This document shows, in pieces, positions 35,591 through 44,794 of a DNA stretch of 64,000 bases. The notes beneath the pieces are model-generated. The model worked only from the letters and a program-made list of their open reading frames with translations, made no database searches and had not been told where the DNA came from. Position 1 is the first letter of the stretch; each line of letters starts with the position of its first letter. The DNA is from a bacterium (GTDB taxonomy: Bacteria > Actinomycetota > Acidimicrobiia > Acidimicrobiales > Bin134): NCBI GenBank assembly GCA_026705465.1, contig JAPPAP010000017.1:6100-70099 (forward strand), written 5' to 3'. The position numbers and the translations under genes were made by a program.

Positions 35591-36130
35591 ATGGAAACCA
35601 CCACCATCCTGCTGCCCACTGGCGAGGTAAACGAGCCGGCTCAGCCGCTGGCCATTCGCAAAGACTCTCTGGCCGGCGCGGTGGTGGGCATCATCGACAA
35701 CGACATGTGGCGGTCGATGGCCATCATGGCCGACGAGCTGTCCCGCCAACTCGTGGACCGGGCCGGGGCGGCCGGGGTAGTCGTGAGGGCCAGTGGCCCC
35801 ATGCACGGCGCCGACCCGGAGCAGTATCAGCAGGAGATGGAGGCGTTCCACGCCGAAGTCGATGCGGTGATCAGCGGATTGGGCAATTGAGGATCATGCA
35901 CGGCGTGGTGTATCCACGCCAGCAGCACGCTGGAAGCAATGGGAACCCCGGCAGTGGGCCTGGTGACCGAGCAATTCCGGGGCCTGGCCGAGGCCACGGC
36001 CCGGGGGCTGCGGGTGGACAACCAGCCCATCATCGTTCTGCCGTCGGGCTACGACGAGTGGTCGGAGGATGACATCAGGGCCGACATCGCATCCCGCCTC
36101 GACGACATCGTGGACGCCCTAGTGGCATGA
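35591..36130 (+). CDS. UGSC-motif (seleno)protein: 179 codons with in-frame TGA (35888-35890) read as selenocysteine
   Basis: AAGGAG lies 7 nt upstream of ATG 35591. ORFs 35591-35890 and 35939-36130 are in the same frame. Read-through gives ...ISGLGN-U-GSCTAWCIHASSTLEAMGTP.... A hairpin follows immediately downstream. Confidence 0.7.
35897..35924 (+). other. Candidate bacterial SECIS hairpin for the UGSC gene
   Basis: The upper stem GGCGTGG (35902-35908) pairs with CCACGCC (35914-35920), with loop TGTAT. The lower stem TGC (35897-35899) pairs with GCA (35922-35924) across a small internal loop. The apical loop lies about 20 nt after the TGA. Confidence 0.55.
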
Positions 36131-37182
36131 CCCAACGGGTCACAGTTGAAGGCGGCACCGACGAGGTAGAGGCCTATCTGCGAGAGCGGGGAATGACCGA
36201 TGGACTTCCCATCGTTCCCCCCACCCCCGGGCGGGTTGCGGCCGCAGTCGCCGCTTCTGGACTGCCCGCCGACCATGTGGTGAGCGACATCGCCCCGCTG
36301 AACGCGCCGGCCACCGTAGAGAAGATTGCAGTCAACGCGGTGATGGCCGGATGCTCTCCGGAGGTGATGCCGGTGCTCGTCGCCGCCATCGACGCCTTCT
36401 GCGACCCCCAGATGAACGCCCATGGCGTGCAGACCACCACCAACCCGGTGGGGCCGATGCTGGTGGTGAACGGCCCGATTCGCAATCGGCTGGGCTTCAA
36501 CTACGGCGCCGGGTGCTTCGGGCCGGGGTCGCACACCAACGCCACCGTGGGCCGGGCCCTTCGGCTGGCCCTGGTGAATATCGGCGGGGCTATTCCTGGT
36601 GACGTGGACAAGGCGCCGCTGGGCTGGCCCGGCAAGGCCACCTCGCTGTGCGTGGCCGAGAATGAGGAGGCCTCCCCGTACTCGCCGTATCACACCGAAG
36701 CTGGGTTCGATGCCGACGACGACGTGGTAACGGTGCTGGCCGTCAACGGAATGTGGCCCATCACCGACATGCACCACGAACCCGACCAGGTGCTGCACCA
36801 CGTGACCCGCGGGCTGGCCACCAGCGGGCCGTGCGGCGGCCACGACGCCCCCAATCCCTTCCCAACGGTGCTGGTGATGAGCCCGGTCATCGCCGAGATG
36901 GTGGCCAGCGTGCTGCCCACCAAACAGGAGCTGCGAGAGCACCTGTTCGCCGAGGCCCGGGTGCCGCTGGACTTCTACCCCCCGTACCGGCACCAGCCCA
37001 CCCGAGATGTGCTCGAGAATCTCGGGGTGGCCATTGAGAACGACCGGGTGCCCATCGTGCTCTCTCCCGATCACTTCGTGATCCTGGTGGCCGGTGGTGC
37101 GGGCGGGCTTCAGTCAGCGGGGCTGTCGTGCATGCTGGGCATGCCTACCAGCCGGGCGGTCGCAACCGGCTCGGCGGCTTAG
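36127..37182 (+). CDS. Conserved hypothetical protein, translationally coupled to the UGSC gene
   Basis: The ATG overlaps the UGSC gene stop (ATGA at 36127-36130). The 351-aa ORF has normal composition and contains ...MTDGLPIVPPTPGRV... and ...AVMAGCSPEVMP.... I do not recognise a family. Confidence 0.65.
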   Translation: MTQRVTVEGGTDEVEAYLRERGMTDGLPIVPPTPGRVAAAVAASGLPADHVVSDIAPLNAPATVEKIAVNAVMAGCSPEVMPVLVAAIDAFCDPQMNAHGVQTTTNPVGPMLVVNGPIRNRLGFNYGAGCFGPGSHTNATVGRALRLALVNIGGAIPGDVDKAPLGWPGKATSLCVAENEEASPYSPYHTEAGFDADDDVVTVLAVNGMWPITDMHHEPDQVLHHVTRGLATSGPCGGHDAPNPFPTVLVMSPVIAEMVASVLPTKQELREHLFAEARVPLDFYPPYRHQPTRDVLENLGVAIENDRVPIVLSPDHFVILVAGGAGGLQSAGLSCMLGMPTSRAVATGSAA

Positions 37183-37551: not shown

Positions 37552-38367
37552 TCAGGCGATAAATCGGTCCGCGAACCGCCGAAGCGAATCAACCGCCTTG
37601 CTGGTGCTTTCCCACGGGGTGACCACCAGACGGTGGGCGCCGGCGTCCTCCCACCGACGCAGATCGTCGAATGATTCACAGCGGCCCTGGGCGGTGATTT
37701 CGATGTCGGGAGCGCCCAGCTCAGCAAGGCGATCGGCCGCGGTCCGAACCGACTCAAAAGTGTCGCCCATGCCCATCCAGCCCTGGAATCGGGCGGCCCG
37801 GCGCAAGGCGGCATCTGACAACCCGCCCACCAAGACCGGAGGATGGGGCTGTTGCACCGGCTTGGGCTCGAACGCCACCGGCTCGAAGTCGTAGAACTCG
37901 CCGTGGTGCTCCACCTCGGGCTCGGTCCAGAGCCGCACGCACACGTCCAAGGCCTCGTCGAGACGGCGGCCCCGGGTGCGGGGGTCCATACCGGTAGCGG
38001 TCCACTCGTTGCGCAGCCACCCCGCCCCCACGCCGACCAGCGCCCGCCCGTTGCTGACGTGGTCCAAGGTGGCGAAGCCCCGGGCGGTGGTGAACGGGTG
38101 GCGCAAGCCGACCAGGTACACGTACACCCCGAGGTTGATGCGGGTGGTGAGCCCTGCCAGGTACGACAGATAGGCCGTGGCGTCGAACACCGGCACCGTC
38201 GGAGGCACGTTGGGGTGATCGACGTCGCCCAGCGAGCCCTCCATCTCAACCGGGAACACCAGATGGTCGGCGATCCAGCACGACTCGAACCCGGCTTCGT
38301 CGGCGGCCTGAGCCACCTCCACCCATGCCCCCGGGTGCAGCGAGATGAAGGGGAACCCGAACTTCAC
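37552..38367 (-). CDS. LLM-class F420-dependent oxidoreductase (Rv2161c-type)
   Basis: The sequence is MKFGFPFISLHPGAWVEVAQAADEAGFESCWIADHLVFP.... Confidence 0.85.
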   Translation of the reverse strand: MKFGFPFISLHPGAWVEVAQAADEAGFESCWIADHLVFPVEMEGSLGDVDHPNVPPTVPVFDATAYLSYLAGLTTRINLGVYVYLVGLRHPFTTARGFATLDHVSNGRALVGVGAGWLRNEWTATGMDPRTRGRRLDEALDVCVRLWTEPEVEHHGEFYDFEPVAFEPKPVQQPHPPVLVGGLSDAALRRAARFQGWMGMGDTFESVRTAADRLAELGAPDIEITAQGRCESFDDLRRWEDAGAHRLVVTPWESTSKAVDSLRRFADRFIA

Positions 38368-38399
38368 CCTCCTGACGCTACAGCGAGCCCTACGATGGC

Positions 38400-39170
38400 T
38401 TGGCCATCAGGAAATGGAGAAGGATTCTGGACCGCAAATTCGCCGCAGCGACCCTGAACAGCCTGGGCCTCGACCCCGACGCCCGGCTGCTGGCGGTGTG
38501 CGCTGGCACCGAGGACTGGGAGCTGCTGTCGTCGCTGGGATTCACCAATGTGGTGGTGTCCAACCTCGACGAGGCGTGCGCCCTGCTGGTGCCCGACGGC
38601 GTTTGGTCGTACCAGGACGCCCAGTCGCTGACCTTTGACGACCGCTCCTTCGACTGGGTGTTCGTGTCTGAGGGGCTGCACCACTGCCGCTCCCCCCACC
38701 GGGCACTGGGAGAGATGTACCGGGTGTGCCGAGAGGGGATTGTGGCCATCGAAGCCCGCGACAGCGCGCTGATGAGACTGGCCGTCCGAGTGGGCATGGC
38801 CGACGCTTACGAACTCGCCGCGGTAACCGACCATGGGTTCCGCACCGGCGGGTTGGACAACACCAGCGTGCCCAACCACGTCTACCGCTGGACAGAGGCC
38901 GAAGTGGTGAAGACCCTGCGGTCCTACGACCCCACCGGCGAGCCCCGCATCGAGTTCCGCCACGGCCTGCGCCTTCCCACCGCCGAGGCCACCGGCCGTC
39001 GCCGACGCTTGGCCGGAAAGCTGGCCAAGCCCGTGCTGCGAGTGCTTTGCGCCGTGTTCAAGCGCCAGTCCAACCAACTAGCTGTCATCGCCCGCCGCCC
39101 CACCGAGTTGTACCCCTGGCTGCATCGAGTAGAGGGCCGAATCCAGTTCAACCCCGACTATTCGAGGTAG
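38400..39170 (+). CDS. Class I SAM-dependent methyltransferase
   Basis: The sequences are ...LLAVCAGTEDWELL...FDWVFVSEGLHHCRSPHRALGEMYRVCREGIVAIE (Methyltransf_11-like). Confidence 0.8.
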   Translation: MAIRKWRRILDRKFAAATLNSLGLDPDARLLAVCAGTEDWELLSSLGFTNVVVSNLDEACALLVPDGVWSYQDAQSLTFDDRSFDWVFVSEGLHHCRSPHRALGEMYRVCREGIVAIEARDSALMRLAVRVGMADAYELAAVTDHGFRTGGLDNTSVPNHVYRWTEAEVVKTLRSYDPTGEPRIEFRHGLRLPTAEATGRRRRLAGKLAKPVLRVLCAVFKRQSNQLAVIARRPTELYPWLHRVEGRIQFNPDYSR

Positions 39171-39208: not shown

Positions 39209-39284
39209 GCCCCGTTCGTCTAGAGGCCTAGGACGCCAGATTCTCAATCTGGTAACACGGGTTCGAATCCCGTACGGGGTGCCA
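39209..39284 (+). tRNA. tRNA-Glu (anticodon CTC), CCA encoded
   Basis: The acceptor stem is GCCCCGT/ACGGGGT, the anticodon stem-loop is CCAGA-TTCTCAA-TCTGG and the T-arm is ACGGG-TTCGAAT-CCCGT. The 3-prime end is GCCA. Confidence 0.9.
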
Positions 39285-42801: not shown

Positions 42802-42826
42802 GCCCGCCCCAAATTCAAGGGCGGGC
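42802..42826. terminator. Hairpin between convergent genes (GCCCGCCC-N9-GGGCGGGC)
   Basis: A perfect 8-bp GC stem at 42802-42809 / 42819-42826. It overlaps the stop (42815-42817) of the extended methyltransferase reading frame. Confidence 0.5.
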
Positions 42827-43882
42827 TTGGTAGATGATGTTGGCGTTGGTCTCGGTGACCCGCTCGAAGCTGGAGTAGCCAGCGGCGGTGAATACTTCCC
42901 GCATGGCGGCTTCGCCGGCTTGAGCGCCCATCCCCAACCCGACGGGTTGGGCCAGCGAGCATGGAATTCAAAACACCGCGGAGGCACCGTACGACGTGGC
43001 TGCCATCGGGTTCTCAGTCAGGTTGCGGACGTGGCCGTCCAGTGCGAACGGCTCCACCATAAGTACCGAACCCCCCTCGGCCAGCTGGCTGCGGGCGTGG
43101 GCGGCAATCCCCACCGGATCTCCCATGTCGTGGAGGCAGTCCAAGAAGAAGATCACGTCGTAGGGCCCCTGGTATCCCTTGGAATCGGCCACCTCGAAGG
43201 AGGCGTTGGCCACGCCAGCTTCGGCGGCCACCTCCCTGGCCTGTTCGATGGACGGGCCGTGGAAGTCGAAACCCGTGAAGTGGGATTCGGGGTAGGCCGA
43301 GGCCAGAATCTGCACCGAGTCGCCGCAGCCGCAGCCCACATCGGCCGCGGTGGCCCCGGCCCGGAGCTTCTCGTCGATGCCGTCGGCGGCCGGGATCCAC
43401 TCGTTGGCCAAGTACATCTCGTACTGGGGTCGGAAGAACCGGGCGGTGGAAGTGAACAGGCTGGGGTGGTGGTCACCCCAGGGCAAACCGCCGTCACCCC
43501 GGAAGGCGTCGAGGACTTCGTCCATGTCGGCAAACATCGCCCGAAACATGCCGATGCCCCCAGCCAAGAATGCGGGACTTGCCTCCCAGGCCAGCACCGC
43601 AGCAGCCTCATCGGTCAGCTGGAATGTGGCATCTTCATCGTCCTGGCCGTCTATCTCCACCAGCTCGACCGCAGCCTGCTGGCGCAGCCACTCGGTAACC
43701 AGGCGTGGATGGCAGCCCGTCGCCTCGGCCAAAGCCTCGGCAGTCATCGGCCCCGCCCCGGCCATGGCCTGATACAGACCCAGCTCGTCGCCGATGTGGA
43801 CCATGGCCATGGTGGTGGCCCCGGCCATGTGGGTGGCCACCTCCCCGGCCAGCTCGGTTACCCGGTCAACGTCGATGTCCAT
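42815..43882 (-). CDS. Class I SAM-dependent methyltransferase with an N-terminal wHTH dimerisation domain; predicted selenoprotein (in-frame TGA at 42968-42970)
   Basis: The ORF track stops at 42968. The same frame continues for 50 more codons (IPCSLAQPVGLGMGAQAGEAAMREVFTAAGYSSFERVTETNANIIYQARP) that look like the normal C-terminus of this family. A hairpin lies 17 nt after the TGA. The methyltransferase call itself is firm (confidence 0.9). Confidence 0.6.
42933..42951 (-). other. Candidate bacterial SECIS hairpin for the methyltransferase gene
   Basis: The mRNA sense reads CCCAACCC-GUC-GGGUUGGG, an 8-bp perfect stem, or a 7-bp stem with a CGUCG loop. It starts 17 nt after the UGA. Confidence 0.5.
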
Positions 43883-43927
43883 GTCAGTTCCTTCTCGGTG
43901 ATGTACCGGCTGGAACCCTAGTGGTGT

Positions 43928-44794
43928 CTATGTGGAGTAGCGGCCAGTAGTACGGCGCTTCCAACCGGCGGCGGCCAGGTTGCCGCCGTCCACGTGGATA
44001 GTGGAGCCGGTGACGAATCGGGACAGGTCCCCGGCCAGGTACACGATCGCGGCGGCGCAGTCGTGAACCGAGCCGCCCTCCAGCCACGGCTGAGGGGCCA
44101 GCTCGGATCGGTCGTCGGTGCTCTCGTCGCCGAGCATGCTCTCGCCCTCGGTGGGGATCACGTCGGGAGCGATGCAGTTGACCCGGATCCCGGCCGGGGC
44201 CAGCTCCAGCGACAGACTCTTGGTCAGATTGGCCTGGGCCGCCTTCATCGCCGAGTAGATGGAGAAGCCGGGACCGGCCCGATGGGCCTCGATGGAGGTG
44301 ACGTTGATGATCGACCCTCCATCGCTCATCAGCGGAATGCACCCCCGGATGAATCCGGTGACCTGGGTGAAATTCTCGGCGATGAGCGCGGCCTCGCCCT
44401 TGAGGTTGATGTCGGCAAACGGGGAGTTGAACGTGCCGCCGGCGTTGTTCACCAGTACGTCCATTCGCCCGAAGGCCTCGCCCACCTCGGCCAGCCAGGC
44501 ATCCCGTGGTTCGGGATGGCGGACGTCGAACAGACCGGTCACACATCGCCGGCCCTGTGCCTCCACCGCGGCGGCGGCCCGGGCCATGTCTTCGGCTTCC
44601 CGGTCGCAAATGGCCACATCGGCGCCGAAGCGGGCCAGGGCCACCGCGGTGGCCGCCCCTATCCCCCGAGCTCCGCCGGTGACGATGGCCACCTTGTCGG
44701 TGAGCAGCACACTGGACGGGTCCAGGATGTTGTCTTCACTCCAAATGGGATCCATATCGCTCTCAAGGCCGCCCAGAGTCCACTCCCCACTCAT
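43928..44794 (-). CDS. SDR family oxidoreductase
   Basis: The motifs TGGARGIG, NNAG and YSAMK are present. Confidence 0.9.
   Translation of the reverse strand: MSGEWTLGGLESDMDPIWSEDNILDPSSVLLTDKVAIVTGGARGIGAATAVALARFGADVAICDREAEDMARAAAAVEAQGRRCVTGLFDVRHPEPRDAWLAEVGEAFGRMDVLVNNAGGTFNSPFADINLKGEAALIAENFTQVTGFIRGCIPLMSDGGSIINVTSIEAHRAGPGFSIYSAMKAAQANLTKSLSLELAPAGIRVNCIAPDVIPTEGESMLGDESTDDRSELAPQPWLEGGSVHDCAAAIVYLAGDLSRFVTGSTIHVDGGNLAAAGWKRRTTGRYST

Follow-up and report, generated by a model that had tools for sequence, protein, structure and literature searches.

Does the methyltransferase gene on the minus strand of this Acidimicrobiia contig end at the TGA where annotation sources close it, or is that TGA read as selenocysteine (Sec)? 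The window, by which is meant the whole stretch of 64,000 nucleotides (64 kb) analysed from contig JAPPAP010000017.1, holds a 304-codon open reading frame (ORF) at 43882-42968 on the minus strand that starts with ATG at 43882-43880 and has TGA (42970-42968) at its end. A first-pass annotation, made from the sequence alone, had claimed that the same frame then runs through 50 more codons to a second TGA at 42815-42817, and translation bore this out. As delimited by translation, Pfam, matches to the PDB and an AlphaFold2 model of an orthologue, the gene occupies 42815-43882 (minus strand) with 355 codons and one internal UGA. That internal TGA is codon 305 (42968-42970), placed by alignment of the codons of homologues, and is the proposed selenocysteine codon; the C-terminal continuation of 50 sense codons in the same frame, IPCSLAQPVGLGMGAQAGEAAMREVFTAAGYSSFERVTETNANIIYQARP, lies at 42818-42967; and the TGA at 42815-42817 is the true stop codon of the full-length gene, with the cysteine (Cys) orthologues ending at the same residue (...IIYQARP). 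A putative Shine-Dalgarno-like AAGGA is read directly from the sequence at 43889-43893 on the same strand, 6 nt 5' of the ATG, and the MDIDVDR start is common to the window protein and its homologues. The best explanation of the locus would be that it encodes a 355-residue selenoprotein: from comparative evidence, the UGA of codon 305 is very probably recoded as selenocysteine, which would replace a Cys invariant in an orthologous group of Rv2258c/TnmJ-type small-molecule methyltransferases dependent on S-adenosylmethionine (SAM).

The evidence that carries this reading is the pairing of TGA with Cys codons at a single alignment column. DNA of relatives was gathered as 170 loci from an index of protein-encoding contigs, a collection of species-representative genomes and a metagenome collection, the last of which yielded distant Cys homologues only. 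The codon aligned with codon 305 was TGC in 135 loci, TGT in 25 and TGA in 10, with no other codon found; Cys thus stands at this column in all 160 of the 160 non-TGA homologues, and is invariant in the alignment designated A2. The full-length homologues were expected by the first-pass annotation to span the additional 50 residues with Cys at the TGA, and the continuation to be the normal C-terminus of the family; both held, the continuation aligning with the C-termini of all full-length homologues. Outside the close clade the Cys forms are 43-56% identical to the window protein and come from Acidimicrobiia, other Actinomycetota, Pseudomonas, Rhizobium, Bradyrhizobium, Acidobacteriota, Planctomycetota and others. 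Among close relatives, a protein search returned products that are either full-length (351-356 aa) with Cys at the TGA column, or 302-311 aa long and stopping exactly there. With four of the TGA forms fetched after the 170-locus count, there are 11 distinct TGA-bearing assemblies (the window, L001, L004, L005, L011, L012, L013 and L173-L176), all from Acidimicrobiia and several in records named as sponge-associated (Candidatus Poriferisocius). The internal stop is TGA in every case and never TAA or TAG, with the terminal stop being TGA or TAG. Re-inspection for an assembly error had also been proposed; recurrence of the TGA in 11 independent assemblies, complete long-read chromosomes among them (L012 represents a complete chromosome; L004 and L015 share one of 3,447,695 bp), shows that it is real. 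The prediction that annotation pipelines would truncate the gene was likewise correct: products of 304 aa are found in ENA, JGI, Logan and NCBI, every database copy of a TGA form is a truncation of 302-311 aa, and one 304-aa product (P0013) bears the NCBI/UniRef name 'methyltransferase domain-containing protein'. What did not stand was a proposed UxxC motif (U-I-P-C in the window), which is not conserved, L001 having U-T-P-S and the family consensus being C-T-P-N; a redox couple of the CxxC type is therefore unlikely.

The codons beyond the TGA behave as coding sequence. All 11 TGA forms have exactly 50 uninterrupted sense codons after it, and in 21 pairwise Nei-Gojobori comparisons among the TGA-bearing lineages the ratio of nonsynonymous to synonymous divergence (dN/dS) in the continuation was 0.01-0.13, at synonymous divergence (dS) of 0.14-1.3; in 21 of 21 pairs it was equal to or below that of 150 upstream codons. 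Differences in the first 15 codons past the TGA are mostly synonymous and begin at codon +1 (for example CCA/CCG/CCT, TCG/TCA/TCC/TCT, CAA/CAG, CCC/CCG, GTC/GTG and GGG/GGC/GGT). Comparison of these sequences thus indicates that the 50-codon continuation is translated and under strong purifying selection. The first ATG after the TGA is codon +13, and is TTG in two lineages; since constraint is already seen at codons +1 to +12, ahead of that ATG, a separately started C-terminal peptide cannot explain it. Nor is the genetic code of the organism reassigned. When the whole 64 kb was scanned for in-frame TGAs with coding-like GC content at third codon positions (GC3) on both flanks, five sites were obtained, of which two are credible, the methyltransferase TGA and a TGA at 35888-35890 in a gene of the UGSC family. 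Two of the three other sites coincide in position with a GC3-supported gene on the opposite strand and were set aside as looking like antisense frames. TGA is otherwise the commonest ordinary stop in the window, closing 27 of 51 GC3-supported segments, and this, together with there being just two credible in-frame TGAs in 64 kb, excludes reassignment.

Domain searches and structural comparison identify the 355-aa product as a full-length class I SAM-dependent methyltransferase of the Rv2258c/TnmJ type. An N-terminal winged-helix dimerisation domain (PF21320, 39.1 bits against a cut-off of 24.1) is followed by a Rossmann class I SAM methyltransferase domain (PF13847, 59.9 bits), in which motif I (DVGCGxG), residues D181-G187, is invariant in alignment A2. 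The product matches TnmJ (8g5s) in the PDB at 4e-43, in an alignment that reaches the last residue, and also Rv2258c of M. tuberculosis (5f8c). The structural model used is an AlphaFold2 model (mean predicted local distance difference test, pLDDT, 91.8) not of the window protein itself but of P0001, a Cys orthologue 89% identical to it, and this model superposes on 8g5s and 5f8f with TM scores of 0.86-0.90 and a root-mean-square deviation of 2.2-2.7 A over about 350 columns. In the P0001 model residue 305 falls within a helix spanning 294-310, between strand beta-5 (267-278) and a C-terminal helix and beta-hairpin, and the part that corresponds to the continuation forms the end of that helix, a helix at 323-333 and the last two beta strands; a product ending at 304 would, by the same model, be without all of these. 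The consensus of the orthologous group around the site is S-x-x-x-C-T-P-N/C-S-L-S/A-Q...GAQxGE. In one Cys-form member of the clade, P0006 (Ca. Poriferisocius sp., 380 aa), the linker that follows the winged-helix domain is lengthened by some 25 residues, with Gly, Glu, His and Pro abundant among them; no other clade member has this insertion.

Downstream of the UGA, the transcript can form a hairpin resembling a bacterial selenocysteine insertion sequence (SECIS). Folding located CCCAACCC-GUC-GGGUUGGG at 42951-42933 on the minus strand, confirming the first-pass description of a perfect 8-bp stem with GU in the loop, 17 nt after the TGA. The hairpin has 8 perfect pairs (-14.4 kcal/mol folded alone), is separated from the TGA by 16 nt and starts at the 17th; the G-U of the loop falls at +28/+29 when the U of UGA is counted as +1. 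In the proposed mechanism it would present an apical loop with G-U at a spacing of 23-24 nt past the UGA. Three variants occur among the TGA forms: that of the window is shared with L011 and L176; L001 and L004 have CCCAGCCC-GUG-GGGCUGGG, with a compensatory change from A-U to G-C; and six sequences have CCCAGCC-GGUC-GG(C/U)(C/U)UGGG, which folds into 5 bp and 2 bp parted by a one-nucleotide bulge on the 3' side and capped by a GGUC tetraloop. One structure accommodates them all, with 5 bp, a 1-nt 3' bulge, 2 bp and an NGUN tetraloop: all 77 of its cells over the 11 TGA forms are paired, as against 86% for a strictly in-register 8-bp version, and one pair covaries (GC 6, AU 3, GU 2). The published bacterial SECIS (bSECIS) model specifies an apical loop of 3-9 nt, an upper stem of >=4 bp (at least 4), 16-37 nt from UGA to loop and a minimum free energy (MFE) of at most -7.5 kcal/mol, with G in the first two loop positions followed by G or U (PMC13188914). 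A comparison of this kind had been suggested by the first-pass annotation, and the hairpin lies within every limit of the model: loops of GUC or GGUC, stems of 7-8 bp, spacing of 23-24 nt and MFE from -10.9 to -16.7 kcal/mol. The full set of 7 pairs can be made by every clade member but by none of the 154 distant Cys homologues, which mostly read L-S-Q-E-V-G-L at this site; the segment has a mean MFE of -9.3 kcal/mol in the distant homologues, whereas the 15 clade members range from -11.7 to -19.9 and the TGA forms, 11 in number, from -13.1 to -19.9. This pattern may be read as a SECIS-competent structure that arose with an E-to-P substitution in the ancestor of the clade and persists as a remnant in lineages that would have reverted to Cys.

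The second credible TGA gene bears on whether Sec is decoded in this organism. At 35591-36130 on the plus strand lies a gene of the UGSC selenoprotein family, with its TGA (35888-35890) in an N-U-G-S-C motif, which matches NF041046 with E = 9.5e-24 and 84 bits, below the 125-bit equivalog cut-off. Gene callers split the corresponding gene into two ORFs in relatives, and PF24696 is recorded on the fragments. Its hairpin at 35902-35920 (plus strand) has a 7-bp stem, GGCGUGG/CCACGCC, starting 11 nt after the UGA, and a UGUAU loop with the G-U at +23/+24, making it a canonical bacterial SECIS. The UGSC TGA is conserved in L001, L004 and L005, all of which have the TGA form of the methyltransferase. 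The organism would be expected to carry selA, selB, selC and selD, for which the UGSC TGA gene in the window and in these three relatives provides indirect support, and the residue inserted at codon 305 would then be Sec rather than another amino acid. Among sponge symbionts, SelA and SelB co-occur in most bins (Slaby et al. 2017, PMC5649159), and one bin of that study, bin134 (MPNQ), is given with SelA = 0, SelB = 0 and SelD = 1 (PMC5649159 Table S4). The methyltransferase locus of this bin, L016 (MPNQ01000017.1), carries Cys at the site, which fits the Sec interpretation for a genome reported to be without SelA and SelB. Bin134 is about 90% complete, so that absence of SelA and SelB is not certain, and its orphan SelD could serve selenouridine or another use of selenium.

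Several observations weigh against the Sec reading or lessen what the hairpin adds to it. When the peptide SLAQPVGLGMG was recoded synonymously with the codon usage of the window, 13-68% of the recodings folded at least as well as the observed sequence; the hairpin is thus compatible, not independent, evidence. In a genome rich in GC, Q-P-V-G-L is self-complementary by its nature. The Cys forms of the clade can fold the same shared structure, so that it does not separate Sec from Cys forms, and the covariation is weak, consisting of a single pair, with 28-39 of 500 shuffles matching the observed score. The UGA and the G-U of the loop are 5 nt more widely spaced than in E. coli fdhF and in the UGSC gene nearby. 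ARAGORN found no tRNA-Sec in the window and 11 loci, and tblastn with E. coli SelA, SelB and SelD gave no match to the window and all fetched loci, each set being a few percent of a genome. A scan of the window with Rfam at the gathering threshold is uninformative here, returning three tRNAs and no SECIS family, not even for the canonical UGSC hairpin.

The simplest competing account is that the TGA is a genuine stop, leaving a C-terminally truncated methyltransferase or a young pseudogene followed by 50 untranslated remnant codons. Every annotation source does have 304-aa products (P0005 and P0007-P0013), and the machinery for Sec was not found in the window and fetched loci. A remnant would be expected to drift, however, whereas 11 lineages keep the frame with dN/dS of 0.01-0.13 at dS up to 1.3; truncation would moreover cost the protein its invariant Cys, the helix at 323-333 and the final pair of beta strands in the Rossmann fold, and the codon is always TGA, never TAA or TAG. 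Such a stop is accordingly held to be highly improbable. A split gene, in which polypeptide 1-304 assembles with a separately started C-terminal piece, was judged just as improbable. In some relatives callers do mark small ORFs (29-46 aa) past the TGA, yet neither a start codon nor a ribosome-binding site is conserved, the first ATG being codon +13 and TTG in two lineages; codons +1 to +12 differ mostly synonymously; and the invariant Cys position would be deleted. The chance that the TGA is a misread or misassembled TGC or TGT, one base away, is negligible: 11 assemblies made independently, in different projects and with different technologies, have the same TGA, and complete chromosomes are among them.

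Recoding of the UGA to a residue other than Sec concedes translation and differs only in what is inserted: Cys, by way of a tRNA(Sec)-like Cys tRNA and SelB, or Trp or Cys by near-cognate read-through. All that the comparative evidence shows is translation of the codon and tolerance of Cys at this position, and SelB-dependent insertion of Cys is described in some bacteria. Against this stands the neighbouring UGSC gene, which belongs to a family defined by Sec, while plain read-through would be inefficient and would leave unexplained the retention of TGA in 11 lineages, one base from TGC or TGT; this alternative is considered improbable, if somewhat less so than a stop, a split gene or an error. 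Decoding as Sec is the reading followed in what remains.

Within the clade the two forms are interspersed. In a neighbour-joining tree, built without bootstrap, the TGA forms fall in two groups, one of nine members that includes the window and a basal pair, L001/L004 (Ca. Poriferisocius). Cys forms sit in between: P0006, P0004 and the group L007/L010/L014/L016/P0002. Two histories would give this arrangement, Sec in the ancestor followed by two or three reversions to Cys, or Sec gained repeatedly, and the former is favoured because of the SECIS-like remnant in Cys forms. The Sec form is therefore probably ancestral in this clade of sponge-symbiont Acidimicrobiia, with some lineages having gone back to Cys.

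What residue 305 does in the enzyme can be approached from the fold. The helix bearing it is, we presume, topologically equivalent to the acceptor-pocket helix of COMT-type enzymes, and Sec usually replaces a chemically active Cys; for these reasons residue 305 is probably a substrate contact or catalytic. In keeping with this and with the invariance of the position, it would probably line the acceptor pocket, where it could contact substrate or act in catalysis or metalloid binding. The residue at this position is Cys in Rv2258c (...LMHCMTVSLA) and Ser in TnmJ. Two specific equivalences were tried, and neither was upheld. Residue U305 does not correspond to the catalytic His of COMT-type enzymes: hhalign, with a COMT query identical in sequence to PDB 1KYW, puts His269 of alfalfa COMT on H251 of the DCLHD motif, which is invariant, and aligns COMT E297 with E277. 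A pairing of C249 and U305 with the two residues that bind As(III) in human AS3MT, Cys156 and Cys206 (sequence checked against 8XT7), was given up as a claim and kept as an idea: C249 falls on Cys156, but U305 does not fall on Cys206, in a low-confidence alignment of 19% probability. A stronger proposal is that the Cys/Sec performs direct chemistry in the acceptor pocket and so marks the active residue of a widespread Rv2258c-related family, which extends over Acidimicrobiia, Pseudomonas, Rhizobium, Acidobacteriota and others; this is entertained only as a rather unlikely possibility. Were it so, the residue might bind a soft metalloid or thiophilic substrate, by analogy with ArsM, or might be a nucleophile or methyl-relay intermediate (Se-methyl-selenocysteine), and the Sec forms of sponge symbionts would be natural high-activity variants pointing to the mechanism of the whole family.

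The neighbourhood of the gene offers no clear clue to its substrate. A short-chain dehydrogenase/reductase (SDR) gene at 43928-44794 (minus strand) lies 45 nt upstream of the methyltransferase, as in most relatives, with an amidohydrolase gene between the two in L001 and L002. Farther upstream are VIT1 and CoA-transferase genes in the window, and genes for acyl-CoA ligase, enoyl-CoA hydratase, thiolase and acyl-CoA dehydrogenase in relatives; downstream in the window are two convergent SDR genes and a major facilitator superfamily (MFS) transporter gene. A scan for promoters and terminators around the methyltransferase gene found none. In 10 of 11 close relatives scanned, the methyltransferase is followed after 50-300 nt by a tRNA-Glu(CTC) gene on its own strand (L001 11142-11217, L005 11119-11194 and L007 11121-11196, for example); none was found in L016. 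In the window this tRNA gene is at 39209-39284 (plus strand), about 3.5 kb from the methyltransferase and on the opposite strand, with the two SDR genes and the MFS gene between, a placement that suggests local inversion or rearrangement; a phage-type integrase adjoins this tRNA gene in L007 and L008. Between the UGSC and methyltransferase genes there are also a Methyltransf_11 gene, a second and unrelated methyltransferase, and a luciferase-like monooxygenase gene, at 38376-39170 (plus strand) and 37552-38406 (minus strand), respectively, and L005 has the same two neighbours. A 369-aa ORF at 36073-37182 (plus strand), with strong coding GC3 and no Pfam match, shares 58 nt with the end of the UGSC gene, and an unannotated ORF of about 351 aa adjoins the UGSC gene in L001, L004 and L005; the 369-aa ORF and the UGSC gene may be functionally linked.

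Decoding of codon 305 as Sec would matter in three respects. For annotation, many sponge-symbiont genomes in ENA, JGI, Logan and NCBI carry the gene as a 304-residue fragment, where the proposed product is one of 355 residues with selenocysteine; peptides such as EVFTAAGYSSFER or VTETNANIIYQARP from the 355-aa sequence would support the read-through product. For function, the invariant Cys305 position is flagged as a likely key residue of an uncharacterised methyltransferase family, Rv2258c having Cys there too. For evolution, interspersed Sec and Cys forms in one clade amount to a small natural experiment in the gain and loss of Sec in host-associated bacteria.

Among proteins of known structure, the nearest are Rv2258c (PDB 5F8C/5F8E/5F8F) and TnmJ of the tiancimycin cluster (8G5S), which have the same two domains and fold at 28-30% identity and TM of about 0.9; they have Cys and Ser, respectively, where the window gene has UGA, and the window protein belongs to a separate orthologous group. 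No substrate for that group or for Rv2258c was found in the papers searchable here. The next-best structural neighbours of the P0001 model are the COMT-type enzymes MfnG, RedM, MmcR, ASMT and DtpM (TM 0.6-0.7), which are only distantly related, the profile alignment with COMT-type enzymes ending at beta-5, ahead of residue 305. For the RNA element the comparison is with the SECIS of E. coli fdhF. The two are alike in having a hairpin directly after the UGA within coding sequence and G-U in a small apical loop, and six relatives share with fdhF a GGUC tetraloop and a single-nucleotide bulge. They differ in that the G-U of the loop stands at +28/+29, against +23/+24 in fdhF, in that the window has a 3-nt GUC loop on a perfect 8-bp stem, and in that the bulge of the relatives is on the 3' side.

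A 2026 catalogue of prokaryotic selenoproteins lists, among those with methyltransferase domains, ArsM (UxxG) and two fusions, methylated-DNA-protein-cysteine methyltransferase (Ogt), MduS (PF13649, CxxU, two Sec) and a UXPK-star fusion (PMC13188914). ArsM (NF008823), MduS and the methyltransferase/UXPK-star protein (NF047649) are likewise class I SAM methyltransferases with Sec in place of a conserved Cys outside a thioredoxin-like fold, but the N-terminal winged-helix domain of the window protein sets it apart from all three. An NCBIfam search gave no selenoprotein model above threshold for the window methyltransferase. No ArsM model was among its matches at E <= 0.01, and the motif is U-[IVT]-P-[CS], not UxxG; NF047649 reached 19 bits against a cut-off of 460, and there is one in-frame TGA, not two Sec; and MduS, from which the protein was distinguished by the description of that family, differs in having a Cys three residues before Sec and two Sec rather than one. 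None of the listed methyltransferase selenoproteins has the winged-helix architecture of Rv2258c or the U-x-P-[CS] context, and the winged-helix COMT-like methyltransferase family is absent from the catalogue (PMC13188914). There is nothing unconventional in the mechanism, a Sec-UGA with an in-frame SECIS, and new Cys/Sec families turn up regularly.

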